A stretch of 48,943 bases of DNA, taken from Myxococcales bacterium (GTDB taxonomy: Bacteria; Myxococcota_A; Polyangia; Polyangiales; Houyiibacteriaceae). The position numbers and the translations under genes were made by a program. Shown here piece after piece: positions 4,972 to 47,857 of the stretch. Position 1 is the first letter of the stretch. Every line of letters starts with the position of its first letter. The stretch covers positions 1 to 48,943 of the forward strand of contig JASFKY010000001.1 of assembly GCA_050118395.1 (NCBI GenBank). Direction: 5' to 3'. The notes under the pieces are model-generated. The model searched no databases and was not told the origin of the DNA. It saw only the letters and a program-made list of their open reading frames with translations.

Positions 4972-8530
<3,559 letters not shown>

Positions 8531-16647: not shown

Positions 16648-16770
16648 GCTCCTGCAAAATGGCGACCGGGAGAGGGCCGCGAGGCAGGCAAGACCTGCAG
16701 GGGCGCAGCCTCGGGGGACCCCGGTCTAGGCCGGGCTCGGAAAAAGCGCGACACGGACTTGCGGGGGACG

Positions 16771-16827
16771 GAGCGGCTTGCATGGGTGGTCCGATGCACT
16801 TGTTGGCTTCGACCACGCAAGCCGCTC
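16771..16827. repeat. Long imperfect inverted repeat (hairpin) in the moxR/yceD intergenic region
   Basis: The outer arms are gagcggcttgc (16771-16781) and gcaagccgctc (16817-16827), 11 bp and perfect. An inner 6-bp stem is gtggtc (16786-16791) with gaccac (16811-16816). Confidence 0.6.
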
Positions 16828-16857
16828 CTCGGGCGGCGCGCCAATCGGAAGTGGTTG

Positions 16858-16905
16858 CAGCGTCAGAGCCAGCGTCAGAGCCAGCGACAGTGTCAGCGAC
16901 AGCGC
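16858..16905. repeat. Four tandem 12-nt units (cagcgtcagagc x2, cagcgacagtgt, cagcgacagcgc)
   Basis: Read directly from the sequence. It lies in a region of low GC3 that I judge non-coding. Confidence 0.8.
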
Positions 16906-16980
16906 GGCGCTGGCGTCAGGGCTGTGAATTGCGTCGAATTACAGAATGTTATCCCGACTCAGGCCGGGTGGCGACCCTCC

Positions 16981-17009
16981 TTGACAGCGACATCGGCACG
17001 ACGAATAGT
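16981..17009 (+). promoter_or_regulatory. Candidate sigma-70-type promoter for yceD-rpmF-fab operon
   Basis: TTGACA (16981-16986), a 17-nt spacer, then AATAGT (17004-17009), ~58 nt upstream of the yceD ATG. Confidence 0.4.
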
Positions 17010-17066
17010 TCCCCGCTATCGTGCCCTTGGAGGGTTGCTTGGCGGTCGCCTGTCGCGTGCAATTCC

Positions 17067-17621
17067 ATGTCTGCTTTCGTCCTACAGATCCAGGACCTCG
17101 ACGAGTCCGGGAGAGATTGGAGCTTTGCCATCGGCGAAGCATGGCTCGCGTCCGCGTTGGCCGACACGGAGCTGAGGCCGGCTAGCGGCGAAGGGCGGCT
17201 GAGCGTGCACGCTCAGCGCAACGGCCCAGACGTGCTGATTCAAGGGCGCATCGAGGCCCGCCTCCTCGCGACGTGCGCTCGCTGTTTGGGTGACGCGCCG
17301 CTGAACGTCGACCTCGCGCTCGCGGCTCTTTTTAGCCCGGAGCACACGCGGCCTCACGACGGGGAGGACCCAGTCGACGTTCGGTTGGACGAAGTCAACC
17401 GAGACTACTACGGAGGCAGGGAAATCGTCTTGGATCCGATGATCCGCGAATACTTGTTGCTAGAGGCACCCATGAAGCCTTTGTGCTCGGAGACTTGCGA
17501 GGGGATTTCCGTTCCCGCGCACCTCCGGCCACCAGAGGCGGTTTTTGGGGCGTCCGCGCCCGACGCGCGCTTCGCCCCCCTACTCAAGCTCAAAGAAGCG
17601 CTTACGAAGAACGAGGAGTGA
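17067..17621 (+). CDS. yceD: YceD/DUF177 family protein (large-subunit rRNA accumulation protein)
   Basis: Has CARCLGDAP...C-terminal acidic Cys motif CSETCEGI and sits in the conserved position immediately upstream of rpmF. Start chosen at the ATG at 17067 (MSAFVLQIQDL). The longer in-frame ORF from 16659 has poor GC3. Confidence 0.78.
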   Translation: MSAFVLQIQDLDESGRDWSFAIGEAWLASALADTELRPASGEGRLSVHAQRNGPDVLIQGRIEARLLATCARCLGDAPLNVDLALAALFSPEHTRPHDGEDPVDVRLDEVNRDYYGGREIVLDPMIREYLLLEAPMKPLCSETCEGISVPAHLRPPEAVFGASAPDARFAPLLKLKEALTKNEE

Positions 17622-17625
17622 TTCC

Positions 17626-17820
17626 GTGGCAGTACCAAAACGTAGAACCAGCCCGATGAAGCGCGATCAGCGCCGGGCCCAGCACGACAAAGTCACCGCA
17701 CCCAACGTGATTCCCTGCCCAAACTGCGGCGACGTCATGATGCCGCATCGGGCCTGTCCCGCTTGCGGATACTACAAGGGGCGGCAAGTTACCAAGGGCC
17801 AGGCGGACGAGCTCGAGTAG
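17626..17820 (+). CDS. rpmF: 50S ribosomal protein L32
   Basis: (V)AVPKRRTSPMKRDQRRAQH...CPNCGDVMMPHRACPACGYYKGRQV. The GTG start is preceded by GAGGAG. Confidence 0.9.
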   Translation: MAVPKRRTSPMKRDQRRAQHDKVTAPNVIPCPNCGDVMMPHRACPACGYYKGRQVTKGQADELE

Positions 17821-17824
17821 GCGC

Positions 17825-18571
17825 GTGTTCGCCTTGGCGGGAAAGATCGCCATCGTCACGGGGGGGTCTCGAGGTATCGGACGTGCAACGTGCGTCGCCC
17901 TGTCTCGGGCGGGCGCGTTCGTGCTCGTGAATTACCGCTCCAATACGGAGGCCGCTCGCGAGACCCTCCGGCTCGTCGAGGAAGCGGGTGGACGCGGCGA
18001 ATTGCTCCCTTTCGACGTCTCCGACTCCTCCTCGGTCGATCAGGCCATTCGGGGCGCTCTCGATCGTCATGGTCGAATCGACATTCTCGTGAACAACGCG
18101 GGAATCTCGCTCGACCAGCTCTTGTTGAGAATATCGCCGAGAGACCTCGAGATGACCTGGGCCACCAACGTGAACGGGGCGATGTATTGCGCCAAGGCCT
18201 GCATTCGCCCGATGATGCGGAATCGGTGGGGGCGAATCATCAACGTCTCGAGTGTGGTGGCAGAGTCCGGAAACCCAGGGCAAGTGATCTATTCAGCCTC
18301 GAAAGCGGCTCTTTTGGGCATGACCCGAACGCTGGCGCGCGAATATGCCTCTCGGGGCATCACCGTCAATGCCGTGGCTCCCGGCTTCATCGAGACGGAC
18401 ATGACCTCGGACCTGTCGGACTCGGCCAAGCAGGCGATCATCGATCAGACGCCAGTGGGACGAATTGGCCGTGCGGACGAGGTCGCTGCTGCGGTAGTGT
18501 TCTTGGCAAGCGAAGAAGCGAGCTATATCACCGGGCAAGTGGTCCGGGTCAACGGAGGCATGTACGTCTGA
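17825..18571 (+). CDS. fabG: 3-oxoacyl-[ACP] reductase FabG
   Basis: SDR motifs: GKIAIVTGGSRGIG, NNAG, and the YSASKAA catalytic Y-x3-K. Located upstream of acpP. Confidence 0.9.
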   Translation: MFALAGKIAIVTGGSRGIGRATCVALSRAGAFVLVNYRSNTEAARETLRLVEEAGGRGELLPFDVSDSSSVDQAIRGALDRHGRIDILVNNAGISLDQLLLRISPRDLEMTWATNVNGAMYCAKACIRPMMRNRWGRIINVSSVVAESGNPGQVIYSASKAALLGMTRTLAREYASRGITVNAVAPGFIETDMTSDLSDSAKQAIIDQTPVGRIGRADEVAAAVVFLASEEASYITGQVVRVNGGMYV

Positions 18572-18594
18572 GGCGTGCGTGACGGAGGAAACAC

Positions 18595-18831
18595 ATGGAC
18601 ATCGCTGAGAAGGTGAAAGAAATCGTTTCGGACAAGCTCGACGTCGATCGGGGGGAGATCGAGGAAGACAAAGACTTCGTGCAGGATCTCAAAGCCGACT
18701 CCCTCGCAATCGTCGAAGTGGTTCTGGCGCTCGAAGAGCAGTTCGAGATCGAGATTCCGGACGAGGATACCGAAAAAATCAAAACCGTCCGCGATGCCAT
18801 CGAATACATCAAGACGCACGCGGCGACCTAG
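18595..18831 (+). CDS. acpP: Acyl carrier protein
   Basis: 78 aa, with the [28 protein letters not shown] phosphopantetheine-Ser motif (DSL). Confidence 0.95.
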
Positions 18832-18861
18832 CTCGCTCGGGCTCGGAAGCAGGTTTCACTG

Positions 18862-20100
18862 ATGCGACGCGTCGTCATCACGGGGGTAGGCACCGTGAGC
18901 CCCTGCGGAGCCGACGTCCCTACGACTTGGAGTCACATCTGCGAGGGTCGCAGCGGAATCGCCAAGATACAGAGCTTCGATCCCACCGAGTTCGCTTCGC
19001 AGATCGCGGGAGAGTGTCGAGACTTCGACCCGTTGCACTACATGTCGAAGCGCAAGCTGCGCGAGGCGGCACGGTTCATCCAGCTAGCCATCGCCGCGAG
19101 CGAGCAAGCGGTCAAAGGGTCGGGCTTCGAGCCGACCGAAGAGCAAAAAGAGAGAGTGGGCACCTTCATCGGAGTGGGCTTTTGTGGTCTCGAAGTCTTC
19201 GAGGACACCTGCAAGACTCTCTTCGAAAAAGGACCACGGCGAGTTTCCCCTTATTTCGTGCCATCGGTGATCTCGAACTTGGCGCCAGGCCAGGTGAGTC
19301 TTCAATGGGGCTTCAAGGGACCGAGCTACACCCACACGAGCGCCTGCGCTTCCGGCGCCCACGCCATCGGTGATGCGTTTCGCTGGATTCAGCGGGGCGA
19401 CATCGACGCGGCCGTGGCCGGTGGAGCCGAAGCCGCCGTCACTCCGATCGGGGTCGCGGCGTTTGCTTCGATGCGCGCTCTGTCCCGAAGGAACGACGCC
19501 CCCGAGCTGGCGAGTCGCCCCTTCGACGTGGACCGCGATGGATTCGTGATCGCGGAGGGCGCCGGAGTGCTGATGCTCGAGGAGCGAGAGGCCGCCCTGG
19601 CCCGGGGGGCTTCCATCCTCGCCGAGATCATCGGTTATGCGGCCACCTCGGACGCCTACCACATGGTGCAGCCGGCGCCGGATGCGGAAGGCGCGCAGCG
19701 TGCGATGAAGCTCGCCCTGCGTGATGCCCACATGAATCCTTCAGATCTTGACTACATCAACGCGCACGGCACCTCGACGCCCATGGGCGACGAGGGCGAG
19801 CTCATCGGGATTCGAAAGGTTTTCGGGGATCACGCGACCGGCGGCCTGGCCGTATCGAGCACCAAGAGCATGACGGGACATCTGCTTGGCGCGGCGGGGG
19901 GGCTCGAGCCCTTGCTGTGCGTTCTCGCGCTCCGTGACGGCCTTCTTCCGCCGACCATCAACTTGGACCATCCCGATCCGGCCGGCGCAGGCATGAATTT
20001 GGTGCCAAACCAAGCGCAGGAGAGGCCGGTCCGCACGGTGATGAACAACTCGTTCGGCTTCGGCGGGACCAATTGCACGCTCGTGCTAAGGGCTCCCTAG
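18862..20100 (+). CDS. fabF: 3-oxoacyl-[ACP] synthase II FabF
   Basis: MRRVVITGVG..., active-site TSACASG, HGTSTP and GHLLGAAG motifs. Confidence 0.95.
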   Translation: MRRVVITGVGTVSPCGADVPTTWSHICEGRSGIAKIQSFDPTEFASQIAGECRDFDPLHYMSKRKLREAARFIQLAIAASEQAVKGSGFEPTEEQKERVGTFIGVGFCGLEVFEDTCKTLFEKGPRRVSPYFVPSVISNLAPGQVSLQWGFKGPSYTHTSACASGAHAIGDAFRWIQRGDIDAAVAGGAEAAVTPIGVAAFASMRALSRRNDAPELASRPFDVDRDGFVIAEGAGVLMLEEREAALARGASILAEIIGYAATSDAYHMVQPAPDAEGAQRAMKLALRDAHMNPSDLDYINAHGTSTPMGDEGELIGIRKVFGDHATGGLAVSSTKSMTGHLLGAAGGLEPLLCVLALRDGLLPPTINLDHPDPAGAGMNLVPNQAQERPVRTVMNNSFGFGGTNCTLVLRAP

Positions 20101-22960: not shown

Positions 22961-23081
22961 ACATTCCCATCTACAGCGAGTCGGTGTCGGTGAAAAGCCG
23001 GTGACCTGCTTCCATCATTTTCGGGGCGGGTCCGGTTCGATCCCTGGCCCTGCCGGCGGTTATGGTAGATACTGCGCCGCC

Positions 23082-23774
23082 ATGGCCACCCTGACCGCCT
23101 TGATGCTGGCGACGCCGTTGTTCGGGCTGACGCTGCAAATCGATTCAGCCCTTCTCGAAGCGCCGGCCCTTGCCGTCGATCCCGGAGTCGCGCTCGCCGT
23201 CGAGACTCAGACGGTGTTGGAGGAGCCTCACCGGCCGACCACCGCCGACCTGGTCCGCAAGCGCAACAAGATCAAGAAAATCCACAAAGGCTTTGGTCTG
23301 GCCACTTGGTCGCTGATGACCCTGTCGGTGGTCTCTGGTTTCATTCAGTTCCACAACCAATACGGCTGGTGGCAGAGCCAAGCCACCAATCCTTGCGTGC
23401 AGGGCACCGCGATCTTCTCCCAAAAGGCCTGTAGCGGCGTTCCGATCGCCCACGCCAGCCTCATTGCGGCGACCTCGGCTGCATACTTCACCACCTTTGG
23501 GCTGTCGTTCGCCATGCCCGATCCCCTCGAGGTCAGCAAGGGCGACAGCCCCTTTGCCCGCAAGCTACGGGCTCACAAGGCGCTCCGCTGGGTGACGTTT
23601 GCGGGCATGCTCACCCAAATTGCCCTCGGGATCGTCTCGGCGAACGGCCAGTGGTTCGGGCTCGATCGCGCCAACGATTACAAGGCCCTGCGCGGTCTTG
23701 CGACCGCTCATCTGGCCGTGAGCCTGGTGACCTACGGTGCGCTCACCGGGGCCGGGGTCATCATGCTTTTCTGA
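23082..23774 (+). CDS. Integral membrane protein, ~4 TM helices each beginning near a His
   Basis: Hydrophobic N-terminus MATLTALMLATPLFG. Four hydrophobic helices follow, preceded by KIHKG, PIAHAS, RAHKAL and TAHLAV. No family recognised. Confidence 0.55.
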   Translation: MATLTALMLATPLFGLTLQIDSALLEAPALAVDPGVALAVETQTVLEEPHRPTTADLVRKRNKIKKIHKGFGLATWSLMTLSVVSGFIQFHNQYGWWQSQATNPCVQGTAIFSQKACSGVPIAHASLIAATSAAYFTTFGLSFAMPDPLEVSKGDSPFARKLRAHKALRWVTFAGMLTQIALGIVSANGQWFGLDRANDYKALRGLATAHLAVSLVTYGALTGAGVIMLF

Positions 23775-23900: not shown

Positions 23901-23969
23901 GAATTTGGGGGTTTCATGAGATCACCGAAGGGTGCAAAAATCCTTCCCAATCGGCGGGCGGGCGCGCAG

Positions 23970-26900
23970 ATGTCCGAGCTGACGGTTGCCAACTACCTGG
24001 GCTTGCTGCTCGACGACCCCTACGACTTCCAGCTGATCGAGGGGTTGCGCGAGTCGTTGCGCGGACCCGCACCCGCCAACGAAGGTCAAGATCCTCTCCG
24101 TTTGCTGGAGGCGGCTCGTGGTGGACACGAACGGCGTGGAGAATTTCTCGCCGCGTCGTGGTTGATCGAGCTCGAGTGCGAGCTGGTCATCGACGATCCC
24201 GAGTTTCAAAAGGTGCTGGTCAAAGAGCTCGGCCGTTTGCGGCGCGACGAGCTGATGGATGATCGGGGCGCCTTGTGCGCGTACGAAAAGCTCGGGGGCT
24301 TGGAGTCCGACGATCCCGAGGTTCTGCAGGCTGTCGATCAGATCCATCAGCTCGAGGAAAAGTGGCGCGAGGTGGCGGATCGGTTCATCGAGGAGGCGCG
24401 TGACGCTGCAGACCCTCGCCTCAAGACGTCGCTGCTGACCCGCGCGGCTTCGCTGATGTGGCAGTACGGCGGCAACGACCTCTGCGAGGAAGCAGATGCC
24501 ATCTTCGACGAGGCGTTGGCTGCCGATCCTTCGCACATGCGTACCGCGCGCCAGTATGCGCTCAGCCTTCGGGAGCGAGGTCGTTGGGAAGACGTCGTGT
24601 CCGTCTTCATGCGCGCCGCCAAAGCCGCGCGGACCCGTGACGAGAAGGCCAGCGCGTGGTTGCAGGCAGCCCGGGTGCAGCGCCGTTCCCTCGACGACGC
24701 CGAAGGCGCCGCGGATGCATATCGGAAGGTTCTGGAGCTCACGCCGACCGACCAGGAAGCGCTCGAAGCGCTGGTGCAGCACTACACCGACCTCGAGGCT
24801 TGGGACGAGCTGGCGTCGATGTACGAGAGCGCGTTGCGGTCACGACAAAAGCTCGAAGACGAAAAGGGGATGTTGCTTCAATTGGCCATGGTGCACTGGA
24901 AGTTCCGCAGGGACTCCGATGCGGCCGAGCCTTTTTTCGCGCGTCTTCGCAAGATTGATGCGGCGCACCCCGGGATGCTCCAGTTCTATCGGGAGCAGAT
25001 CGGCGACGATGATCCCAGCGGGCGTTTGCTGACGATCATCGGGGATGCGCTTCGCACGACCACGGACTCCGAGCATCAGCTTCAGCTGGCCAGAGAGCTC
25101 GGCCTCAGAGCGCAAAAAGCAGACCGGCCCGAGCGGGCGCTCGAAGCGTGGAAGATGGTGGAGCGACTCGCGCCGGGAGACCTCGACGCGCGAACTGCAT
25201 TGCAGCAGCTCTACCAGAGCAGCGGCAAATGGAACGCGCTGTCCGAATCGATTCGCGGCGAGATCGAGGCGCTGTCGAGCGACGCGAACGAGCAGAAGAT
25301 CCGGCTGCTGCGAGACCTGGTTCCGATCTATCGCGATGCGTTGAAGCTCGATTCGATGCTGATCCAGGTGTACGGCGAGATCCTGGCCCTGTCGCCGTAC
25401 GACGGAGAAGCGCTCACCGCGCTCGGGGCGCTCTACGAAGACGCCGGCCGCTGGAATGAGCTGATTCAAGTTCTGGAACGTCAGGCCGAGTTGGCCGCGG
25501 AGTTGCCCGACAAAGTGCGCTTGTACCTTCGAGTGGCCCATTTATGGCTGGACCGCTTCGCCAATCTCAATCAGGCGGTGGGGCCGCTCGAGCGCGTCGT
25601 GCGGTTGCAGCCGGACCACGCGGAGGCGCTCGCCCAACTCAAGGACATCTATACGCGCAAACGCAAATGGGAAGCGCTCTTCGGCGTCTTGGGAAGGGAA
25701 GCGGAGCTCGAAACCGAGCCCGCCGCACGACTCGAAAAGAAGATCGAAATGGCCGAGCTCTGCTCGGAGCGACTTCACCACAACGGTGCCGCCATCGCGT
25801 TGTGGAAAGAGATTCTCGACGAACATCCCGAAAGCGAGCGGGGTCTCGACACGCTGGAGAGCCTGGCAGAGCGCGAAAAGGACTGGGACACCTTGGTCGA
25901 GGCCCTTCGCATGCGCGCCGAGGCCTCTTCGAGCGAAAGCGTTCGCCGTGAGCTCTTGCAGCGCATCGGGATGCTTCTCATGGAGCGGCTGGCCAAGCCT
26001 GCGGAGGCGATCGAAGCATGGGAGGCGGTGCTCTCGCTCGATCCGCAAAACAGCCGTGTTCGCCGAATGCTCAGGGACGCGTACGTCAGCCAAGGCGACT
26101 GGGTCTCGCTGCAAGCCCTGTACGAGCGATACGACGATTGGTCCGGTCTGGCCGAGGTGCTGAGCCAAACCGCAGAGCAAGTGGACGAACCGGCAACGAT
26201 CACCACGCTCAGTCTGAGGGCCGCCGAGATCTACCGGGATCGTCTCGACGATCCGAGTCGGGCGGCGCGATGCTACGAGCGAGCGCTCAGGGCCGATCCG
26301 CAAAACGTGGAGGCGGCGACTGGGCTGCTCCCCATGTACGAGCGCGACCGCAAGTGGTCGGAGTACGTGCGCATGCTGGAAATCGTCGTTGCGCACGCCG
26401 CTCCCGACGAAGACGTGGCCTCGTCCCTGAAGCGGCTCGGGTCGCTTCGGAGCGCATGTCTGCACCGTCTGCGCGATCCCGAGGCTTCGCTCGGCTGGGC
26501 GACACGGGCGTATCTATTGGCCCCCGGGGAGCCTGAGGTGGTGGCCGGACTCGAAGAATCGGCCGAGGCCGCCGGCGCCCACGCAGACCTGGTGGCCCTG
26601 TTTCGAGACCGCCTGGAAAATTCCGCCCTCGATCAAGCCGAGCGGCTGGATTTGCAGAGACGCATCGCAGCCATCGCAGGCGAGCGATTGGGCGAGTCCG
26701 AGGAGTCGATTCGGCAGCTCGAGGCCATCCTGCGGGTCGAGCCCGACGATGCAGAAGCCATGGCGGTGCTCGACCGCTTGTACAGGGCCGTACGCCGTTT
26801 TGCCGATTTGCGCGCTCTCTATGAACGCCGACTCGAAAAGGCAACCGATTCGGCCGAGCGGTGGGTGCTTCTGAACGAGGTTGCCCAGGTCGAAGAGGAG

Positions 26901-29900
26901 CAGCTCGGAGACCTCCCGGCGGCCGCCGAAAGGCACTGGCAGATCCTCGAGAGCAATCCGCACGACGTCGATGCGCTGCTCGCGGTCGAGCGGCTCTCCC
27001 AGCAGCTCAAGCAATGGGACAGGCTCGACGCCGCGCTCGCGCGACGGTTGCAGTCCAAGATGAGCGACGAAGACCGTCTGTCGGTGTATCTGCAGCTCGC
27101 CGATCTGCGGCGCATTCATTTGGGGGACGCTGCGGGTGCGCTCGAGTGTTATCGCAGCGCGCTCGATCTCGATGGACGCAACGAGGTGGCCATCGCGGGC
27201 CTCGAGGCGCTGTCGGCCGAGGGCGGAGGAGTCGGAGTCGAGGCGATCGACCTCTTGGAGCCTGCCTACGCAAAGCGTGGTCACTTCGACCGGCTCGCGG
27301 GGCTCCTGCACAAGCGGCTGGAGCAAGCCGAGGGCGCAGAGGAGCGTCGTGTGCTTCAGCTGCGTCTTGCCGACCTTGCGGGCTCCGAGCTCGGTGATGC
27401 CCGGGGGGCTTATCAGGCGGTCGAATCCGCTTTTCTCGACGATCCCACCGACCTCGATTTGTTCGAACGCCTCGGCGGGGTTGCCGAAGCAGCCGACATG
27501 CACGAGGCCTTTGCCCGGGCACTGAGCAAAGCTGTCGACGGAGCGGCTGCCGGTAGCGACATCGAGCTGACTCTATGCCGGCGAGCCGCAGAGCTCTTCG
27601 ACGTGATGCTCGGCCTTCCCGAGGATGCCGCCCGCTTCCACCGGCGCGTGTTGGAACGAGAGCCCGGCGATACTGCGGCTTTTACCGCCCTCAAACAGCT
27701 CTACACCAAGCAGGAGGAGTGGGACGATTTGCGCGCGCTCTATCAGCAGCGCATCGAGGCGACGACTGACGCGACGACCAAGCTCGACTTGCTCCTGCAG
27801 CTGTGTTTCCTCTTCGAAGAGATCCTCGACGAGCCCAAGCAGGCCATCGCGAGCTACGAGGAGGCCGTCGAGCTCGATCCGACGCACACGCCGTCCCGTC
27901 GCGCGCTTCAGCGCTTGTACGCGCGGCTCGGTCGTTGGTCGGAGCTGTCCGAGCTGCTTCAGCGCGACCTCGACGAGGCGGAAGGGCAGGAGGCCGTCGA
28001 TCTGGCCTACGAGCTGGCCACGATCTATGAAACGCGGCTGGACCGGTTCGTCGACGCGGTCGACCACTACGAGCGGGTGCTCGAATCCAGCCCGACCCAC
28101 CTTCGAGCGCAGGAAGGTTTGCAACGGCTCATGGAAAAGCGCGACCAGCGGCAGCGCGTCGCGGCAATCCTACAGCCGATCTTCGAGAGCCAGGGTGCTT
28201 GGGGTGAGCTTGCGAAGGTGCTCGAGGTGCAGCTCGAAGACCTCACCGAGCCTGCTTCGCGGGCCGCGCATCTGAGCCGGCTGGGCGAGCTGAGCGAAAT
28301 CAAGCTTCGGGATGACGGGTTGGCCTTTGCCGCTTATGCGCGGGCGGTTCGTGAAGACGTGGCCGATGGGAGCGCACGAGCCGATCTGGCTCGTTTGGCT
28401 TCGAAGCTCGACCGGCATCCGGAGCGCGCCGAGCTATTGGAATCGGGGCTCGACGCAGTCGGGGACGACTTCGTACGAACCGAGGTTCTGCTCGAGCTGG
28501 CGGAGCTTTGGGACGTTTCGGCCCCCGATCCCGAGCGTGCCGAGCGAGCGTACCAGCAGCTGATCCGCTTCGAACGCGACAACCCCGACATCGTGTTGAA
28601 AGCCTCCCGCGCGCTCGAGCGTTTGCATCGAGCCGGGGGACGACATGGAGACCTTGCCCAGGACCTTCGGCGCCAGATTCGCTTCGAAGAGGACGAGTCG
28701 CGTCGAGATGAGCTCTTCCCCATGCTCGCAGAGCTGCTCGAAACCGAGCTCGGGGACCCCGAGGCCGCGATCGAGGTTCACGAGCAGAGACTGGAGCTCG
28801 ATCCCACCCAAACCGAGGCTTTGTCGGCGCTGGAGCGCCTTTACGAGCAGCAGGGCCGCTGGGAGCCGTTGGTGGGCGTGCTGGAACGCAAGGTCGAGCT
28901 CAGCACGGACGAGCATGACCAGCTCGTGCTGTGCCGTCGAATCGCCGAGACCTACGAGCAGAAACTCGGCAGCATCGACCGGGCCGTCGATTCCTACCGG
29001 GACGTCATTTCGAGGTTCGGATCGGACGACAGCAGTCTTCGCGCGCTTTCGCGGCTCTATCGGCAAACGGAGCGTTGGCACGAGTTGCTCGACGTCGCCG
29101 AAATCCGCGCAGAAGCTGCCGCGGATCCCGAGGAGCGGATCGCGCATCGATTCGAGGCCGCAGAGCTCATGAGGACTCGCACCGCGGAGACCGAGCGGGC
29201 ATTTTCGGCGTATGGCGAGATTTTGGTCGACAGCCCGGGGCACGGGCCCACGCTGCAAGCCCTCGAAGAGATGACGACGGGGGCGGACCGCCCCTTGCGC
29301 TTTGCGGCCGCCAACACGCTCTTCGAGCAGTATCAGAGCGACGGACGCCACGCCGACCAGATCCGCATGCTCGAGGTCATCGCGGCCGGCGACGAACCGA
29401 TCGAGCGCGTGCGCGCGCTGCTTCGAGCGGCCGAGATCAGCGAAACCGGACGCGAGGACATCGATGCTGCTTTCGTGTTCACCGGAAGAGCGCTGCGGGA
29501 CGGCGTCGACTTGGACGATCTCGAACGGGTCCTCGCCGAGTACGGACGACAGGCCGACACCACCGGGCGTTTTTCCGAGCAGGTCGCCACGTTAGCGACC
29601 ATCGCACCCGAGCTCCTCGATGCCGAGCTGCGAACCAAGGTGCGAATGCAGGCAGCCCGGGTTGCGATGGAGCACCTCGGAGACGCCGATTTCGCGCGGG
29701 CCCAATATCAGCGTGTCCTCGAGGAGCAGCCCGACCACCGGACCGCGCTCGATGCGCTGCTCACACTGGTCGAGGAGGTCGGCGCAACCCGGGAGCTGGC
29801 GGAGCTCCTACGACGGAAGATCGAGCTGTCGGATGACCCGGAAGAGCGTGCAGAGCTGCTGGTGCGCCAGGCGCATCTCTTTCAAAGCGAGCTCGACGAC

Positions 29901-32900
29901 CCCGACTCCGCCATCGAGGCGCTCGACCAGGCGCTCAGCGAGAACGAACATCCCCTGGCGTACGAAGGTCTGGAACGACTCTATCGACGCACGCGCCAAT
30001 GGGACGCCCTCGCCACCCTGTACGAGCGGGAAATCGACCAACGCGTGGGGGACCCCGCGGCGGTGCGATACGAGCTCGGCGAGATCTGCCTGCAGCGGCT
30101 AGACGAGCCGTGGCGAGCCATCGACCAGTTTCGGGAGGCGCTGAGCCAAAGTCCCGAGCACGAGCCGACGGTGCGCGCGCTGGAGTCGTTGGTGGAGCGA
30201 TCCGAATATCGAGGCGCCGCAGCCGAGCTGCTCGAGCCTTTGTACCTGCGACGGATGGAGTGGGACAAAGTGACCCGCATTCTCGAGGCGCGGCTCGAAG
30301 GAGAAACGAACCCGGCGCAGCGCTTGGAGCTCTTGCGGCACTTGGGCGACGTGCAGGAGTCGCACCTCGAAGATCTCGATGGTGCGCTCGAGACATACGG
30401 GCGCCTCTTTTCGGAGGACCCCCACGACGAGCACAGCAAGGAGACCCTCACGCGGCTGGCGCGCTCGCTCGGCCGATGGGATCGGCTGGCGGCCATTTTC
30501 GACAAGACCCTGCGGGCGGTGGAGGTCGATGACGGCGACACCGCGGCCTTGGCGCTGACCACCGCCAAGCTCTACGACGAACGGCTCGAAGAGCTCGACC
30601 GGGCTGGCTACTTCTATCAGCGGGCGCTCACCTACGACCCGAGCCACAAGGAAGCGGGTCGGGCCCTGGCCTCGGTCTATGCTCGAAGCGCACGCTGGGA
30701 TGCGCTGCTCGAGCTCGACCGGGAGCGGGAGAGCTTTTCCGATTCGGATGCGGAGCGGGTCGCGATTCTGCACGAAATCGCCCGGATCGAAGTCGACGAG
30801 CTCGGCTTGTCGGAGGACGCGATCATCACGTTTCGGCGCATCGTCGAGGTGGATCCCAAGGACAAGGAAGCGATCCGCCGGCTCGACGAGCTACTCGAAG
30901 CGGCCGAGCGCTGGGAAGACCTCGCCGCGCACGTCGAGTTTCAAATCGACAATGCCCCCGACGGGCGTACGGGGCTCGAGCTCCGTCAACGGTTGGGGTC
31001 CCTCACTGAAAGCAAGCTCCAAAACCCGGCCTCCGCGCTCGACATCTTCGAAGACATTCTCGCCGATCGACCAGACTACGAGCCCGCGCTCCAGGCCGTC
31101 TCGCGCTGGGTGAGCGATGCCGACCACGGCCCGCGCGCAGTCGACATTCTAGAGCCGATCCACCGGCAGGCCGACGACTGGAAGGCACTGGCCGAGGTGT
31201 TGCGTTCCAAGGCCGAGCAGGGAACCGATTCCTTCGAGCGTGCCGAGATTTGGCGCGAAATCGCCCAGATCCGGGAGGGAAGGGGCCGGGACGCCGAAAG
31301 CGCTTTCGACGCATGGGGCCGCGCATGGGTAGCCGAGCCCGCCGACGAAACCACCCGCGCCGAGGTGTACCGCCTGGCCGCCTCGCTGCGCTGCTGGGAA
31401 GCGTACATCGAAACGTGCGAGCGCGCGGTTTCGGCGACGGAGGAGCCGGCGCTTCGGGGCTCCATCCTCCGGAGCGTGGCGGAGACTCGAGACCAGGAGC
31501 TCGGGGACCCACGCGGCGCCATCGACACCCACCGACGGGTATTCGAGGCTGATCCTGACGCCGAGGAAAGTCTCGACCAGCTGGAAGGCTTGCAAGTCAT
31601 GGTCGGAGATTGGCAAGGGCTTGCATGGGTTTACGAGAGAAAGCTCGATCGCGCCCACGATGCCGAGGCGCGAGCCCAGCTCCTCAATCGGCTGGGCGCC
31701 CTCTACGAGGAACAGCTCTCGGACCCGGAGCGCGCCGTGTCGTACTTCGAGCAGGCCACCGGGGAGAGCCCTGACGACCCGGACGCCTACGTGGCCCTCG
31801 ATCGCCTCTTCGCATCGGTCAACGACTCGGAGAGGCTGGCGGGGGTGCTCGAGCGCCGCATGCAAATCGAAATCGACCCTGAGGTCGTGGTGGAGCTCGG
31901 GCTTCGCCTCGCGGAGCTGTACGAGGCGCAGCTCGGACGGCCCGATGCGGCCTGCGACGCGCTCCGAGCGGTCGTCGAGGCCGACCCCGAGCATCGAGGC
32001 GCCCTCGAGGGGCTGAGCCGGCTCTATGAGCGTCAGGCCCAGTGGCCGGAGCTGGTCGATGTGCTTCGGCAGCGGGCGGATGCCGCGATCCACGAATCCG
32101 AGAGGGTCCTACTCACCCATCAGCTCGGCAACGTCTTGGAGCGCGAGCTCGATGACGAGCTGAGCGCCATCGCGGTCTACGGTCAGGTCCTGCGGATCGA
32201 TCCGACGCACGAGCCTTCGGTGCGAGCGCTGCTGCGAATCACCAAGCTCGACGACTATCGCGAAGATGCCGCGGCCGTGGTGGAGCCCCATCTGCGGGCG
32301 CAGGCTCGGTGGAACGACCTCGCGACCCTTCTTCGGTTGCGCGCCGATGCAATGACCGACCCCCACCAAAAGGCCGAGCAACTGGTGGCGCTGGCGGACG
32401 TGCATGAGCAGGGTCGCCAAGATCCCAATGCGGCGCTCGATGCGCTCTTGCAGTCGATCGGCGAGCGTGCCGACGATGACGAGATCCTCGATCGCGCCGA
32501 ACAGCTGGCCCGAAGCCTGCAGCGTTGGTCGGATTTGATCGACGTGTTGTTCACGGAGGCGAGCGCCAACTTGGATGCGGATCGCGGCGCGGCGCTTTAC
32601 CGGCGCGTAGCCCGAATTTGTGAAGAGGATCTGCGTGACTTGAGCCGAGCGATCGAAGCGCACGAACGCGCCCGCTTGCTGCTCGGGGACGAACCTTCGA
32701 CGTTGGAGGCGCTCGATCGGCTCCTCCAAGCCACCGGTCAATGGGAACGGCTGCACGACGTGATCTCGCGGCGCTTGGACCTGCAGGATGCAGATCGCCC
32801 TACGTTGCTGCTCCGACAGGGTCGGCTTCGGGCAAGCCATCTCGGGGACTTCGAGGGAGCTCTGGGAGCCTATCAGAGGGCCATGGAGCAGGATCCAGGG

Positions 32901-35153
32901 CGCGACGATGCTCTCATCGCCGTGCGCGGCTTGGCACAAAAGCCCGAGGTCGCAGGCAACGCGCTTGCTCTGCTTGAGGAGTACTACCGGGGAGCGGGCG
33001 ACCTCGAGCAAGTCGTGCGACTTTACGATCAGCGAGTCGAGCTGGCGGCGACCGACGCCGATCGGGTCGCTCTGTTGACGGAAGCAGCCACGATCTGGGA
33101 AGAGGAGCTCGGTCGTCTCGACCAAGCACTCGCGGTGACGCGCGAGGCGGTTCGCATCGACCCTCGCGATCGCCTGCTGATCGATTCGCTCGAGCGGCTT
33201 GCAGAGCTGTCCGGAGGATGGGCGGAGCTCGATGGGCTCGTCGACGACATCGCGGCACGCGGAGACTTGGATCGCCGCGAGCTCTACGAGCTGAGGTTGC
33301 GCTCGGCCGCCTGGGCGCGCGACCGCATGGGAGACTCCACCCGAGCCGAGCGCGCGCTCAACGAGGCCCTCCAGATCGATCCCGAGCCCGTCGAGGCCTA
33401 CGAGCAACTGGCGGCGCTTTTGCGTCAACAGGGTCGGGCTGCGGACCTGGTGACCATGCTGCGCGCTTGGGCCGACGTCGAGCCCAGTCCGGATCAGCGT
33501 GTCGCGCTTCTGCGGGAAGCGGCCGAACGCGCCCGCGAGGAGCTGTCTCACGGCGAGCTGGCAGCCGATTGTTATCAGGCGCTCATCGCGATCGAGCACG
33601 ATGACATGGAGGCGCTGTGCGCTCTTTGCGAGATCCGCAGCGGCCAGTCCCGATGGAACGAGGTGGTCGGGTTGCTGGAGCGGCAGCTCGAGGTCGCGGC
33701 AGACGACCAACGCGCCTCGATTGCTCGCTCCATGGGCGAGGTCTACCGAGACCGATTGAACGACCCCAGAGCAGCCATCTCGGCGTACGAAAGAGCACTC
33801 GATTTGGACGAGCACGACGCATCGGCCATGGACGCGCTCGAGGGGCTATACCGGGATCACGATCGGCTCGAGGCGTTGCGAGCTCTGCTCGAACGACGCG
33901 CCGAACGGGCGACGGGGCCGGAGCTCACCGCGTTTCAACTCCGGTTGGCGCAGCTCTACGAGCATTCCTTCCGCGACCAGCACGCGGCCATCACGATGTT
34001 CCAGCGAGTGCTGGAAGTCGATCCGGAAAACGACACCGCCCAAGCAGACCTCGAACGACTCTTCGAGGCCACCGGAGCCTGGGACGATTTGATCGCCTTG
34101 CTCTCGTCGAGGCTGGGCCTCGAGTCCGAAGAGAGCCAGCGACGCTTGCTCGAGCGCATCGGTCACATCCACGACGCCAAGCGTGACGATACGGATGCCG
34201 CGATCGCGGCGTTCCAGCGCATCCACGAAGATCTCGGAGCAGACGAGCGCTCGTTGCAAGCGCTGGCGGCTCTCTACGAACGGAAGCAGAGCTGGACCCA
34301 AGTGGCGGACGTGCTCGAACGACTGGCCGGACACGTCGAGGGTACGGAGGCGATCGATCTTTTTCACCGCGTGGCGGATCTTTGGGAGCAGCACATCGGC
34401 GACGCCGAGCAGACGGGAAGGGCGCTCCGCGCCGCTTATGGTCGATTCCCGCAGGATCGAGCCACGGTCGATCGATTCAAGCGCCATTTGGAGGCGCGCG
34501 GCGACTATCGCGCTCTTGCCGAGGTGCTCGATGCCGAGCTCCAATCTGCCGGATCCGAAGCTGCCGAGCTGGCGTTGCTTCGCCAGATCTCCGATGTGTA
34601 CCGGGATCGACTCGACGATCCAGCTGCAGCCGCAAGCTATCTCGAGCGGGCCGTGGCCCTCGATCCCGAGAACCGCGGCGCCCTGGTGCCGCTTTGCGAC
34701 CTGTACATGGCGGCTGGACGTCAGCAGGACGCCGTTCCGATTTTGCGCAGGATCATCGAAAGCTTCGGGAGGCAGCGCGGGAAGGAGCTAGCGCTGCACC
34801 ATCATCGCTTAGGTCAAGCCCTGGCCGCAGCAGGCGACACCGCGGGCGCCCTCGAGGCGTACGACGCGGCCTTCAAGATCGATCTGACCAACGTGGCGAT
34901 CCTTCGTGACCTGGGCAAGCTCACCCATGCCACGGGCGATTTGGACCGGGCCCAAAAGAGCTTTCGGGCACTCTTGCTGCAAAAGCTCGAGCCCGACTCG
35001 GGTATCCACAAGGCGGACGTGTACTACTACCTAGGCGACATCGCCGCCCAACAGAACGATCCGCGGAAGGCCATCACCATGTTGGAAAGGGCCCTTGCCG
35101 AGGACGCCAGCCACGCGCAGGCTTCCGAGCTCCTCGGTAGACTCAAGGGCTGA
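23970..35153 (+). CDS. Giant (~3,700 aa) all-TPR-like repeat protein
   Basis: Uninterrupted ORF with consistent GC3 bias. It has dozens of units of the type A-[IL]-x2-[YW]-E-x-[VA]-L-x2-[DE]-P-x5-A-L-x2-L-x2-[LI]-Y-x4-[RK]-W-x-[DE]-L. Trp codons at 25452, 25668, 25884 and 26100 are exactly 216 nt apart. The ATG at 23970 (MSELTVANYL) is preferred over 23916 because codons 23916-23969 have poor GC3. Confidence 0.85.
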   Translation: MSELTVANYLGLLLDDPYDFQLIEGLRESLRGPAPANEGQDPLRLLEAARGGHERRGEFLAASWLIELECELVIDDPEFQKVLVKELGRLRRDELMDDRGALCAYEKLGGLESDDPEVLQAVDQIHQLEEKWREVADRFIEEARDAADPRLKTSLLTRAASLMWQYGGNDLCEEADAIFDEALAADPSHMRTARQYALSLRERGRWEDVVSVFMRAAKAARTRDEKASAWLQAARVQRRSLDDAEGAADAYRKVLELTPTDQEALEALVQHYTDLEAWDELASMYESALRSRQKLEDEKGMLLQLAMVHWKFRRDSDAAEPFFARLRKIDAAHPGMLQFYREQIGDDDPSGRLLTIIGDALRTTTDSEHQLQLARELGLRAQKADRPERALEAWKMVERLAPGDLDARTALQQLYQSSGKWNALSESIRGEIEALSSDANEQKIRLLRDLVPIYRDALKLDSMLIQVYGEILALSPYDGEALTALGALYEDAGRWNELIQVLERQAELAAELPDKVRLYLRVAHLWLDRFANLNQAVGPLERVVRLQPDHAEALAQLKDIYTRKRKWEALFGVLGREAELETEPAARLEKKIEMAELCSERLHHNGAAIALWKEILDEHPESERGLDTLESLAEREKDWDTLVEALRMRAEASSSESVRRELLQRIGMLLMERLAKPAEAIEAWEAVLSLDPQNSRVRRMLRDAYVSQGDWVSLQALYERYDDWSGLAEVLSQTAEQVDEPATITTLSLRAAEIYRDRLDDPSRAARCYERALRADPQNVEAATGLLPMYERDRKWSEYVRMLEIVVAHAAPDEDVASSLKRLGSLRSACLHRLRDPEASLGWATRAYLLAPGEPEVVAGLEESAEAAGAHADLVALFRDRLENSALDQAERLDLQRRIAAIAGERLGESEESIRQLEAILRVEPDDAEAMAVLDRLYRAVRRFADLRALYERRLEKATDSAERWVLLNEVAQVEEEQLGDLPAAAERHWQILESNPHDVDALLAVERLSQQLKQWDRLDAALARRLQSKMSDEDRLSVYLQLADLRRIHLGDAAGALECYRSALDLDGRNEVAIAGLEALSAEGGGVGVEAIDLLEPAYAKRGHFDRLAGLLHKRLEQAEGAEERRVLQLRLADLAGSELGDARGAYQAVESAFLDDPTDLDLFERLGGVAEAADMHEAFARALSKAVDGAAAGSDIELTLCRRAAELFDVMLGLPEDAARFHRRVLEREPGDTAAFTALKQLYTKQEEWDDLRALYQQRIEATTDATTKLDLLLQLCFLFEEILDEPKQAIASYEEAVELDPTHTPSRRALQRLYARLGRWSELSELLQRDLDEAEGQEAVDLAYELATIYETRLDRFVDAVDHYERVLESSPTHLRAQEGLQRLMEKRDQRQRVAAILQPIFESQGAWGELAKVLEVQLEDLTEPASRAAHLSRLGELSEIKLRDDGLAFAAYARAVREDVADGSARADLARLASKLDRHPERAELLESGLDAVGDDFVRTEVLLELAELWDVSAPDPERAERAYQQLIRFERDNPDIVLKASRALERLHRAGGRHGDLAQDLRRQIRFEEDESRRDELFPMLAELLETELGDPEAAIEVHEQRLELDPTQTEALSALERLYEQQGRWEPLVGVLERKVELSTDEHDQLVLCRRIAETYEQKLGSIDRAVDSYRDVISRFGSDDSSLRALSRLYRQTERWHELLDVAEIRAEAAADPEERIAHRFEAAELMRTRTAETERAFSAYGEILVDSPGHGPTLQALEEMTTGADRPLRFAAANTLFEQYQSDGRHADQIRMLEVIAAGDEPIERVRALLRAAEISETGREDIDAAFVFTGRALRDGVDLDDLERVLAEYGRQADTTGRFSEQVATLATIAPELLDAELRTKVRMQAARVAMEHLGDADFARAQYQRVLEEQPDHRTALDALLTLVEEVGATRELAELLRRKIELSDDPEERAELLVRQAHLFQSELDDPDSAIEALDQALSENEHPLAYEGLERLYRRTRQWDALATLYEREIDQRVGDPAAVRYELGEICLQRLDEPWRAIDQFREALSQSPEHEPTVRALESLVERSEYRGAAAELLEPLYLRRMEWDKVTRILEARLEGETNPAQRLELLRHLGDVQESHLEDLDGALETYGRLFSEDPHDEHSKETLTRLARSLGRWDRLAAIFDKTLRAVEVDDGDTAALALTTAKLYDERLEELDRAGYFYQRALTYDPSHKEAGRALASVYARSARWDALLELDRERESFSDSDAERVAILHEIARIEVDELGLSEDAIITFRRIVEVDPKDKEAIRRLDELLEAAERWEDLAAHVEFQIDNAPDGRTGLELRQRLGSLTESKLQNPASALDIFEDILADRPDYEPALQAVSRWVSDADHGPRAVDILEPIHRQADDWKALAEVLRSKAEQGTDSFERAEIWREIAQIREGRGRDAESAFDAWGRAWVAEPADETTRAEVYRLAASLRCWEAYIETCERAVSATEEPALRGSILRSVAETRDQELGDPRGAIDTHRRVFEADPDAEESLDQLEGLQVMVGDWQGLAWVYERKLDRAHDAEARAQLLNRLGALYEEQLSDPERAVSYFEQATGESPDDPDAYVALDRLFASVNDSERLAGVLERRMQIEIDPEVVVELGLRLAELYEAQLGRPDAACDALRAVVEADPEHRGALEGLSRLYERQAQWPELVDVLRQRADAAIHESERVLLTHQLGNVLERELDDELSAIAVYGQVLRIDPTHEPSVRALLRITKLDDYREDAAAVVEPHLRAQARWNDLATLLRLRADAMTDPHQKAEQLVALADVHEQGRQDPNAALDALLQSIGERADDDEILDRAEQLARSLQRWSDLIDVLFTEASANLDADRGAALYRRVARICEEDLRDLSRAIEAHERARLLLGDEPSTLEALDRLLQATGQWERLHDVISRRLDLQDADRPTLLLRQGRLRASHLGDFEGALGAYQRAMEQDPGRDDALIAVRGLAQKPEVAGNALALLEEYYRGAGDLEQVVRLYDQRVELAATDADRVALLTEAATIWEEELGRLDQALAVTREAVRIDPRDRLLIDSLERLAELSGGWAELDGLVDDIAARGDLDRRELYELRLRSAAWARDRMGDSTRAERALNEALQIDPEPVEAYEQLAALLRQQGRAADLVTMLRAWADVEPSPDQRVALLREAAERAREELSHGELAADCYQALIAIEHDDMEALCALCEIRSGQSRWNEVVGLLERQLEVAADDQRASIARSMGEVYRDRLNDPRAAISAYERALDLDEHDASAMDALEGLYRDHDRLEALRALLERRAERATGPELTAFQLRLAQLYEHSFRDQHAAITMFQRVLEVDPENDTAQADLERLFEATGAWDDLIALLSSRLGLESEESQRRLLERIGHIHDAKRDDTDAAIAAFQRIHEDLGADERSLQALAALYERKQSWTQVADVLERLAGHVEGTEAIDLFHRVADLWEQHIGDAEQTGRALRAAYGRFPQDRATVDRFKRHLEARGDYRALAEVLDAELQSAGSEAAELALLRQISDVYRDRLDDPAAAASYLERAVALDPENRGALVPLCDLYMAAGRQQDAVPILRRIIESFGRQRGKELALHHHRLGQALAAAGDTAGALEAYDAAFKIDLTNVAILRDLGKLTHATGDLDRAQKSFRALLLQKLEPDSGIHKADVYYYLGDIAAQQNDPRKAITMLERALAEDASHAQASELLGRLKG

Positions 35154-35156
35154 CGC

Positions 35157-36035
35157 ATGCTGACAGGAAAGGTTTCGATCGACGGCCGCCTCGTCGAAAG
35201 CCGCGAAGCGCGCGTGTCGGTGTTCGATCGGGGCTTCTTGTACGGGGACAGCGTGTTCGAGGTGTTTCGGACCTACGAGGACGTGCCTTTCGCAGAGAGG
35301 GAGCATCTGGAGCGTCTGGCTCGCTCCGCCGAGCTGCTGATGATTTCTCTGCCGGTTTCGCTCGAAGCGCTTTCGAACGAAATACGAGAAACCTTGCGAG
35401 CCGCCGGTCCGGGCGATTGGTACGTGCGCGTGGTGATCACCCGCGGGAGTGGGCCACTCACTTACGACCCATCCACCGCCACGACGCCGCTTCGCGTCGT
35501 CATCGTGGCGCCGCTGTCGCTTCCGCCGTCGCACTACTACGAGCGAGGCATCGCCGTGTCGCTGATGCATGCATCGAGACCGACCGACGATGCCCGCGCC
35601 TCCGGTGCCAAGGCGTCGAACTACCTGGCCAATCTTCTAGCGGTTCACGAGGCCAAGCAAAAAGGGGCGCAAGAGGCCCTGATGCTCGGGCGTCGCGGCC
35701 AAATCCTGGAGGGCGCCTCGAGTAATCTCTTCATCGTGAAAGACGGAAAGGTTCGAACGCCCGAGCCCGAGCCGGGGATCCTCGTGGGAATCACCCGGGC
35801 GACGATTCTGGCGGCCGCATCCGAGGAGGGCATCGAGGTCGAGGAAACCGAGGTCCGGCCCGACGATCTCTACGGCGCGGACGAGGCGTTCATCACGAGC
35901 AGCATCCGGGAGGTGATGCCGGTCGTGTCGGCGGATGGGCGCACCATCGGTGACGGCGCACCCGGACCCGTGACCGGACGTCTTCGCGCGGCCTATCGGA
36001 GGGCCGTCGATGCCGCGATCCGGACCGGGGTTTGA
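35157..36035 (+). CDS. Class IV (fold type IV) PLP aminotransferase: branched-chain/D-amino-acid aminotransferase or aminodeoxychorismate lyase family
   Basis: VSVFDRGFLYGDSVFEVFRTY, the ASNYLANLLA motif region, GITR and EAFITSSIREVMPV. The ATG lies 3 nt after the giant ORF's stop. Confidence 0.85.
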   Translation: MLTGKVSIDGRLVESREARVSVFDRGFLYGDSVFEVFRTYEDVPFAEREHLERLARSAELLMISLPVSLEALSNEIRETLRAAGPGDWYVRVVITRGSGPLTYDPSTATTPLRVVIVAPLSLPPSHYYERGIAVSLMHASRPTDDARASGAKASNYLANLLAVHEAKQKGAQEALMLGRRGQILEGASSNLFIVKDGKVRTPEPEPGILVGITRATILAAASEEGIEVEETEVRPDDLYGADEAFITSSIREVMPVVSADGRTIGDGAPGPVTGRLRAAYRRAVDAAIRTGV

Positions 36036-47625: not shown

Positions 47626-47699
47626 TCGGGGATCGTCTAATGGTAGGACTCGAGATTCTGGTTCTCGCTATCTAGGTTCGAATCCTAGTCCCCGAGCCA
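47626..47699 (+). tRNA. tRNA-Gln (anticodon CTG), CCA encoded
   Basis: Folded by hand. Acceptor stem is TCGGGGA/TCCCCGA, D stem GTCT/GGAC, anticodon stem CGAGA/TCTCG with loop TTCTGGT, and T arm CTAGG-TTCGAAT-CCTAG. The discriminator is G, followed by CCA. Confidence 0.9.
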
Positions 47700-47777
47700 T
47701 ACTGCCCTCGATTCCCAGGATTACGGATGCGGGGCAGGCAGGACAGTGTTAAACACGCCCACGCAAAAGTGATTCAC

Positions 47778-47850
47778 GGCCCCATCGTCTAGTGGTCTAG
47801 GACATCGGCCTCTCACGCCGGTAACGCGAGTTCGAACCTCGCTGGGGTCA
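47778..47850 (+). tRNA. tRNA-Glu (anticodon CTC), CCA not encoded
   Basis: Folded by hand. Acceptor stem is GGCCCCA/TGGGGTC, anticodon stem TCGGC/GCCGG with loop CTCTCAC, and T arm GCGAG-TTCGAAC-CTCGC. The discriminator is A. Confidence 0.9.
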
Positions 47851-47857
47851 CCGGAAA

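Follow-up and report, generated by a model that had tools for sequence, protein, structure and literature searches.

A giant TPR-solenoid protein of a Polyangiales bacterium belongs to a clade sister to the gliding scaffold GltI/AgmK

Near the middle of a stretch of 48,943 nucleotides from a Myxococcales bacterium (positions 1 to 48,943 of contig JASFKY010000001.1, assembly GCA_050118395.1; the whole stretch is hereafter the window) lies one gene, at 23970..35153, whose product is built almost entirely of tetratricopeptide repeat (TPR)-like units. What is such a protein, does it have relatives, and can anything be said of its function? A sequence-only reading of the window had described it as a cytoplasmic giant scaffold of a rare and uncharacterised kind. 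We report here that the window protein is an acidic alpha-solenoid of the cytoplasm, about 3,700 residues long, and a member of an undescribed clade, clade A, which is the sister of GltI/AgmK, the scaffold of the gliding motor of Myxococcus xanthus.

An intact gene for a solenoid of 47 units

The open reading frame (ORF) is uninterrupted on the plus strand from 23916 to 35153 and comprises 3,745 codons when counted from ATG 23916. This alternative in-frame ATG gives an N-terminus 18 amino acids (aa) longer than ATG 23970. With ATG 23970 as the start, the first residue aligns with the first residue of the closest full-length homologue (P0073), and the 18-aa extension is present in some fragment homologues. 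The G+C contents at the three codon positions (GC1, GC2 and GC3) are 0.755, 0.427 and 0.776; from either start to the stop at 35153, the frame is thus the single intact ORF with a coding GC3 that had been read.

No signal peptide was found in the giant protein, and since the top 19-residue Kyte-Doolittle window reaches only 1.14 it has no transmembrane (TM) helix. Pfam and NCBIfam returned TPR-type matches only, and the cutoff of a specific equivalog was never reached. These results agree with the earlier statement that signal peptide, TM helix and enzyme domain are lacking. The protein is also strongly acidic (D+E = 753 compared with K+R = 476), with a net charge of about -277.

We then defined the repeat with a hidden Markov model (HMM) that was seeded with ten units and iterated on the giant protein itself until convergence. 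It gave 49 unit matches (independent E-values, i-E, from 1e-7 to 4e-26), namely 47 full units between aa 80 and 3605 and two partial ones in the C-terminal TPR end, and none of 50 shuffled sequences gave a unit match at i-E < 0.01. The unit consensus is R..LL..lA.ly...L.D...Ai.ay..vL..dP.....Al.aL..ly...grW.eL..vLer.l. Of the 48 intervals between unit starts, 22 measure 72 aa and 18 more fall within 69-76 aa; the remaining eight are long, 85 aa once and 89-90 aa seven times. At a lag of 72 the residue identity is 0.149, compared with 0.086 +/- 0.005 in shuffles (n=50). The period of about 72-74 aa proposed from the letters therefore holds, but the count of about 40 copies was too low (47-49 by the iterated HMM). 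The Trp codons at 25452, 25668, 25884 and 26100 are indeed spaced by exactly 216 nt. Nine motifs had been quoted as examples of the unit; the motif scan lists eight of them, among which RKWEALFGVLGRE, AQWPELVDVLRQR and SRWNEVVGLLERQ, and the ninth, GDWVSLQALYERY, was read in the translation, its Trp (aa 711) being in the scan list.

Comparison of the array with itself at the DNA level gave short 60-90% matches only, and no tandem array was found in the DNA of the giant gene, so the strong divergence noticed earlier, with no near-identical tandem copies, is real. Similarity between units carries a weak higher-order period (about 59-61 at lags 4-5, 9 and 13, compared with 50-54 elsewhere); the pattern of long units, the barcode, is the clearer higher-order signal. 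The Pfam families TPR_8, TPR_19, TPR_1, TPR_7, TPR_2 and others match at 1e-35 to 1e-48, values summed over many weak repeats, and the individually significant TPR stretches are mainly C-terminal. The features of the giant gene are as follows.

23970..35153, plus strand: coding sequence of the giant TPR-like protein, 3,727 aa plus stop, GC3 0.78
23970..24206, plus strand: N-terminal 79 aa before the first recognisable unit, which begins at aa 80
24207..34784, plus strand: array of 47 units (aa 80-3605), four helices per unit, that is two TPR-like hairpins
25227..25256, plus strand: KWNALSESIR in unit 5, position-specific clade A signature (family consensus KWNAL[LIV][ED]xL[KR])
25944..26198, plus strand: long unit 9, 85 aa, from HMM unit boundaries
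27075..27344, plus strand: long unit 14, 90 aa, extra helix with the A..lLEP.Y motif
27993..28259, plus strand: long unit 18, 89 aa, five helices in the AlphaFold2 model
29136..29405, plus strand: long unit 23, 90 aa, five helices in the AlphaFold2 model
30054..30320, plus strand: long unit 27, 89 aa, with AAELLEPLY, among the family's most conserved 9-mers
30972..31238, plus strand: long unit 31, 89 aa, from HMM unit boundaries
32103..32369, plus strand: long unit 36, 89 aa, from HMM unit boundaries
32796..33062, plus strand: long unit 39, 89 aa, from HMM unit boundaries
34560..35150, plus strand: C-terminal end domain, 197 aa, more canonical TPRs, with Pfam TPR_1/2/11/14/19 individually significant

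The KWNAL motif stands at aa 420-424, and the residues that follow it depart from the pattern with which genomes were scanned (see below). Successive long units are 5, 4, 5, 4, 4, 5 and 3 units apart and partition the solenoid into modules of about 230-380 aa; the A..lLEP.Y motif on their extra helix is among the family's best conserved elements. AlphaFold2 models cover two segments, aa 1342-2028 (units 18-26) and aa 3177-3727. The former has 38 helices and the latter 31, with no other element in either, at mean predicted local distance difference test (pLDDT) scores of 92.2 and 92.4, so that both are entirely helical, as expected from the earlier reading. As 38 equals 5+16+5+12, a normal unit has four helices and a long unit (18 and 23) has five. 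Tandem hairpin profile matches and an all-helical solenoid fold in the models place the protein in the TPR superfamily.

Foldseek retrieved as top matches in the PDB Ctr9 (Paf1C), Ski3, IFT139/TTC21B, TTC7 and the TPR domain of OGT (E from 4e-13 to 1e-8). These eukaryotic proteins are likewise elongated TPR/HAT solenoids that act as assembly platforms, and the ARM_TT21_5th matches of Pfam in the giant protein also recall long eukaryotic TPR scaffolds. However, the likeness is one of local fold only (TM-scores of 0.14-0.26 and 12-16% identity), and the eukaryotic proteins are 3-5 times shorter and have neither the regular 72-aa super-repeat nor the long-unit barcode. We found no evidence of common descent with them beyond the TPR superfamily. 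A sequence search of the PDB for a solved relative returned designed consensus TPRs and LapB only. A consensus TPR superhelix makes one 72-Angstrom turn in about 8 repeats. By this analogy the approximately 100 TPR-equivalents of the window protein would span some 900-1,000 Angstrom if continuous, roughly in line with the model of GltI at about 1,100 Angstrom.

A large family with two clades

To find relatives we searched 1.84 billion representative proteins (50% identity clusters) with a profile of 46 aligned units. The best 150 matches are all giant proteins of 2,250-7,720 aa, mostly 3,200-4,200, with 30-106 unit matches, and the unit profile found more than 150 such clusters of giant relatives, whose representatives typically have 40-52 units. 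One genome per GTDB species was then scanned with the motif KWNAL[LIV][ED]xL[KR], and 223 of the 244 matching stretches encode a relative. With such numbers the protein can no longer be called rare. The locus counts given here and below rest on the best 80 of the 223 relatives, which are distinct loci, all from metagenome-assembled genomes (MAGs), with Myxococcus itself not among them. Nineteen of these 80 are labelled Sandaracinaceae or Sandaracinus, nine Polyangiales, eight Polyangia and one Haliangiales; other labels are Myxococcales, Myxococcota and delta-proteobacterial.

Closest to the window protein are P0073 (73.5% identity, 3,726 aa) and a protein of Sandaracinus sp. (MAQ13170.1, 45%), which point to a probable Polyangiales/Sandaracinaceae-like source; the window protein itself, with either start, was absent from the protein collection. 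BLASTP aligned relatives as single collinear high-scoring segment pairs (HSPs) over residues 1-3727, down to 26-30% identity. When 77 full-length members were aligned with MAFFT, only 2% of the cells in window-protein columns were gaps and conservation was even along the length, meaning that every unit has a positional orthologue and that the array is not fast-evolving. Most of the complete loci, more than 40 independent ones, have intact ORFs of about 3,740-3,950 codons. Length is thus conserved among homologues, and intact ORFs in dozens of assemblies together with collinear alignments down to this identity uphold the view of an old, selectively maintained array.

Searches with segments of 477-700 aa returned no match longer than 1,224 aa, although giants 73% identical to the protein are in the same collection. 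We thus attribute the fragment homologues to short contigs, frameshifts of Oxford Nanopore (ONT) reads and an apparent ceiling of about 1,200 aa in one search index; an index that omits very long proteins can make giant families seem fragmentary or rare. The giant genes are at present labelled "tetratricopeptide repeat protein" or even "golgin subfamily B member 1", an annotation that is corrected here.

The family also has members of unusual size. One relative (P0072) has 7,720 aa and 106 unit matches, and a clade B relative (P0196, 5,284 aa) has ten long units that recur regularly every four units; in both, the array exists in expanded form. A genuinely short relative of 1,017 aa with a like unit type is present in two loci (L083, 10001-13054; L084, 8705-11758), with a PilZ-domain gene after it. 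In L083 it is also near a gene for a 1,817-aa TPR protein and three bactofilin genes.

All-against-all comparison of the 150 giants and the window protein gave two superclades, A (87 proteins) and B (64), the window protein being in A. Normalised scores average about 190-390 among A proteins, compared with about 70-180 for A against B. Clade A proteins have eight long units (L) followed by about nine plain ones, according to the barcode ........L....L...L....L...L...L....L..L........., and clade B proteins have five or six followed by about 19. The strict clade A barcode was found in 52 of 87 A proteins and in one of 63 B proteins; conversely, the clade B pattern was found in none of the 87. 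The termini divide the clades as well. The N-terminal 300 aa of the window protein are matched at the N-terminus of 54 of 87 clade A proteins but of one of 64 clade B proteins, and the 197-aa TPR end domain is terminal in 83 of 87 and 0 of 64, respectively; in the best-matching clade B proteins it lies about 570 aa before the C-terminus. The window protein has the modal clade A pattern (8 long units then 9 plain), the length, the collinear alignment, KWNAL in unit 5 and both termini of this clade.

The two clades are nevertheless homologous in register. The best HSP joins residues 490-3437 of the window protein to residues 485-3460 of a clade B protein (P0122) with 777 bits and about 26% identity, compared with 450-530 bits in shifted registers, and the LEP.Y long unit is common to both. 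The simplest history would be that a giant gene of full length was duplicated and that the termini and the count of long units changed thereafter.

Which proteins, then, make up clade B? GltI/AgmK (MXAN_4863) of M. xanthus is a 3,822-aa cytoplasmic TPR protein that serves as a scaffold of the gliding motor; gltI mutants are non-motile, GltI-YFP is found in fixed focal-adhesion clusters in an MglA-dependent manner, and AglZ and MglA require GltI to enter the complex (PMC4508894). According to experiments and AF-multimer it binds the FHA domain of GltG and the GYF domain of GltJ (PMC4508894, PMC11761067); modelling placed on it six superimposable GltG-FHA sites and two weaker GltJ-GYF sites, and a sizeable helical domain at the C-terminus was reported (PMC11761067). 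The GltI proteins of Anaeromyxobacter (Adeh_3311) and Stigmatella (STAU_5650) have 4,074-4,104 aa (PMC3169522 Table S3), while that of Sorangium is annotated in two pieces, sce2920 and sce2921, of 1,774 and 2,081 aa; GltF has 89 aa, and the GltI homologues treated by Luciano et al. are cluster-linked ones only (PMC3169522).

One of our loci (L082) carries a clade B gene that is collinear with P0122 over residues 1-3807 and interrupted by long-read frameshifts. Its gene order is a GltE-like TPR gene, an 89-aa ORF, a 692-aa FHA protein, a 238-aa protein, a TPR ORF of about 300-390 aa and the clade B giant, the same as that of MXAN_4870-4862 in M. xanthus and of sce2915-2921 in Sorangium (compare PMC3169522 Table 1 and Table S3). 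The 692-aa protein has its FHA domain at residues 27-91 and matches the NCBIfam model gliding_GltG from end to end, with 308 bits, under the 650-bit equivalog cutoff. It has an AgmX/PglI C-terminal domain above cutoff, and the 238-aa protein bears the same domain. Moreover, a Myxococcaceae fragment named "gliding motility protein" by NCBI is 49.5% identical to clade B compared with 24% to A. This fragment and two from Anaeromyxobacter are 40-50% identical to a clade B group (group 3) of 4,118-4,185 aa, whereas the best clade A match of one Anaeromyxobacter fragment is 28%. An NCBIfam model for GltI does not exist; on synteny, published lengths and the one NCBI name we assign superclade B to GltI.

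In three Polyangiaceae-like loci, an FHA/sigma-54 activator (AAA+) gene lies a few kb downstream of the clade B giant.

L082 18657-19937, minus strand: FHA/sigma-54 activator gene
L086 15217-16560, plus strand: FHA/sigma-54 activator gene
L087 14634-15900, plus strand: FHA/sigma-54 activator gene

Like the window protein, GltI orthologues are cytoplasmic proteins, of 3,800-4,100 aa, made almost wholly of double-TPR units of about 72 aa, without signal peptide; the two are in register over about 3,000 residues at about 26% identity and both have five-helix A..lLEP.Y long units spaced by 3-5 units. The window protein is thus GltI-like in size and location in the cell, but it stands apart in grouping, in array architecture and in gene location: it belongs to a separate clade with another barcode and a different N-terminus, and it is not in a glt cluster, having no GltG, GltH or GltJ neighbours. 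It also lacks the stretch of about 570 aa that follows the TPR end domain in clade B and that may correspond to the helical C-terminal domain reported for GltI. The evidence on gliding, FHA and GYF concerns M. xanthus GltI only. Other TPR proteins of myxobacterial envelope machines, the GltD/AgmU, GltE and GltC proteins of the Agl-Glt and Nfs machines, are more remote, since they are exported proteins or lipoproteins of 450-1,200 aa whereas the window protein lacks a signal peptide and passes no equivalog cutoff; weak NCBIfam GltE matches do occur among its relatives.

A giant TPR scaffold of the GltI type is therefore an already known kind of protein, and clade A as described here is new, no description of it having been found in the literature searched. 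"Uncharacterised" applied to the clade of the window protein but not to its sister, and the statement that no function can be deduced was half right, as GltI is required for gliding and acts at focal adhesions. Homologs with an already assigned function, which the sequence-only reading had said would count against it, do exist in GltI/AgmK.

Possible roles of the clade A giants

By analogy with GltI, the window protein is most likely a multivalent cytoplasmic platform, a reading that we hold with moderate confidence. The clade A giant would form a long platform beneath the inner membrane and would hold a partner complex in several copies set at a fixed spacing. If docking stations or hinges recur periodically along it, the eight LEP.Y five-helix units are the best candidates for them. 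The cytoplasmic, all-helical giant of TPR type of the earlier reading is supported; scaffolding itself, what the long units do, which partners bind and which cellular process is served are what we infer. As a further and tentative possibility, clade A might organise an unrecognised trans-envelope or membrane machine of Polyangia, LEP.Y units being docking sites in both clades (eight in A; six in GltI, where they would be the FHA sites). If so, the invariant barcode would be a molecular template that sets how many complexes dock and at what spacing.

Several observations weigh against a GltI-like platform. NCBIfam detected no glt or agl equivalog in the 49-kb window, and examination of clade A loci revealed no operon partner kept throughout the clade. 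The link of clade B to GltI is through synteny, published lengths and a single NCBI name. Only neighbouring accession numbers suggest that one genome may hold both A and B (the A/B pairs MBU0553488.1/MBU0550480.1 and MBU1429516.1/MBU1433306.1 are about 3,000-3,800 numbers apart), and no locus-tag prefix was common to A and B among the fragment matches. Finally, the representative nearest to the GltI of Myxococcia (P0184) has six long units 304-308 aa apart, and that their number equals that of the modelled GltG-FHA sites, likewise six, is a numerical coincidence; that the long units of GltI-type proteins are the FHA sites is, from the equal number, suggestive only.

Could the window protein simply be a relocated GltI orthologue of Sandaracinaceae-like Polyangiales that serves the Agl-Glt motor with a remodelled array? 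Its full-length in-register homology to clade B and the common LEP.Y long units would fit, and as none of the named clade B fragments is from Sandaracinaceae, the source of many clade A fragments and loci, this lineage may carry clade A only. Sandaracinus is, moreover, a gliding myxobacterium. We nevertheless regard such an orthologue as unlikely: both clades are present in Polyangiaceae-labelled and in Haliangiales/Kofleriaceae-labelled MAGs, the two close accession pairs suggest A and B within one MAG, the clade A barcode is different and invariant, its N- and C-termini are unlike those of clade B, and the clade A loci examined never adjoin gltG/H/J-like genes. A comparably low probability is given to a scaffold for a process unrelated to Agl-Glt-type machines, for example one that organises the cytoskeleton or a cell pole, or one that adapts to the short cytoplasmic tails of membrane proteins such as the PEGA proteins whose genes adjoin it in some lineages. 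The sole experimentally studied relative is a motility scaffold, and the neighbours that would speak for such a process (housekeeping surroundings, a PEGA-TM gene tightly coupled downstream in five distant clade A loci, a conserved membrane protein upstream in 24 loci, PilZ and bactofilin genes beside the 1,017-aa relative) are not conserved across clade A; since PEGA proteins are abundant in Myxococcota, that adjacency may be due to chance.

That the gene is a decaying or misassembled repeat without function is already contradicted and highly improbable. Many database homologues are fragmentary and some long-read loci have frameshifts, but the ORF of the window is intact with a coding GC3, intact ORFs recur in the more than 40 loci mentioned above, and length and barcode are kept at 26-30% identity. 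Collapse or expansion during assembly is implausible because the repeats are dissimilar at the DNA level.

The GltI-like platform thus remains the reading we prefer, and it makes the comparison of the two clades useful. Of the large components of the myxobacterial focal-adhesion motor, GltI is the one least understood, and a sister clade of the same size offers a natural comparison, all the more as clade A is widespread in Polyangia, lies outside glt clusters and keeps a fixed eight-unit pattern over very deep divergence. The comparison marks the 72-aa unit and the LEP.Y five-helix unit as ancestral features, whereas the C-terminal extension, the station count and the distance between stations are marked as tuned ones. 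It also yields a testable idea, namely that the long units are repeated partner-binding sites.

Neighbouring genes and other features of the window

In the window the neighbours of the giant gene are, on its upstream side, fab genes, an M18 peptidase gene and an HMGL-like gene, and in addition the two genes that flank it directly.

23001..23774, plus strand: multi-pass membrane protein, upstream, with no NCBIfam match; syntenic in close relatives
35157..36035, plus strand: class IV (branched-chain/D-amino-acid type) aminotransferase, 3 nt beyond the stop of the giant gene

The synteny with these two genes, to which the sequence-only reading had drawn attention, recurs in part of the family: by tblastn, the membrane protein is upstream in 24 of the 80 loci and the aminotransferase downstream in 22. 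Beyond close relatives the neighbours of clade A genes are variable, in housekeeping surroundings. In five distant clade A loci the next gene downstream codes for a product that has a signal peptide, a pair of PEGA domains and a poly-Pro stretch, then a single TM helix at the C-terminal end with a short tail.

L047 20751-21569: PEGA-TM gene
L055 21079-21747: PEGA-TM gene
L056 13925-14617: PEGA-TM gene
L059 21229-21933: PEGA-TM gene
L070 21258-21983: PEGA-TM gene

It overlaps the giant gene by 4 nt in L055 and is separated from it by gaps of up to about 20 nt in L047, L059 and L070. The PEGA-TM protein is a possible membrane partner of the clade A giant.

Three ORFs of the window, at 3352-4971, 1820-3262 and 6872-8530, had been considered as candidates for GltG, GltJ and AglZ and were rejected by NCBIfam. 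The product of 3352-4971 (plus strand) combines a TM helix at its N-terminus with a long, charged Gln/Pro-rich linker and a TonB_C domain, and is not of the AgmX/PglI type. The ORF at 1820-3262 (plus strand, 480 aa, GC2 0.67) encodes a signal-like N-terminus, a Tyr/Trp/Pro-rich middle and a long Pro/Arg/Thr/Ser-rich tail; it matches no Pfam family and has only a weak match to the BcpO lipoprotein. The 552-aa protein of 6872-8530 (plus strand) has an unusual arrangement, in which a REC domain (aa 211-294) and a hydrophobic segment are joined to a PEGA-like C-terminal stretch.

Elsewhere in the window, on the minus strand, a MoxR/CoxE-type pair consists of an AAA ATPase gene (15787-16647) adjoining one for a VWA/CoxE-like protein (14598-15809). 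A fatty-acid synthesis cluster occupies 16659-20100 (plus strand) with YceD, FabG, acpP and FabF; acpP, at about 18591-18827, is recognised by its DSL motif, a simple ORF filter having chosen an antisense ORF instead. At 47626-48452 (plus strand), tRNA-Gln (CTG) and tRNA-Glu (CTC) are followed by a 187-aa fragment that matches only the C-terminal end of the transposase family PF21804 and is likely an insertion remnant beside the tRNA genes.

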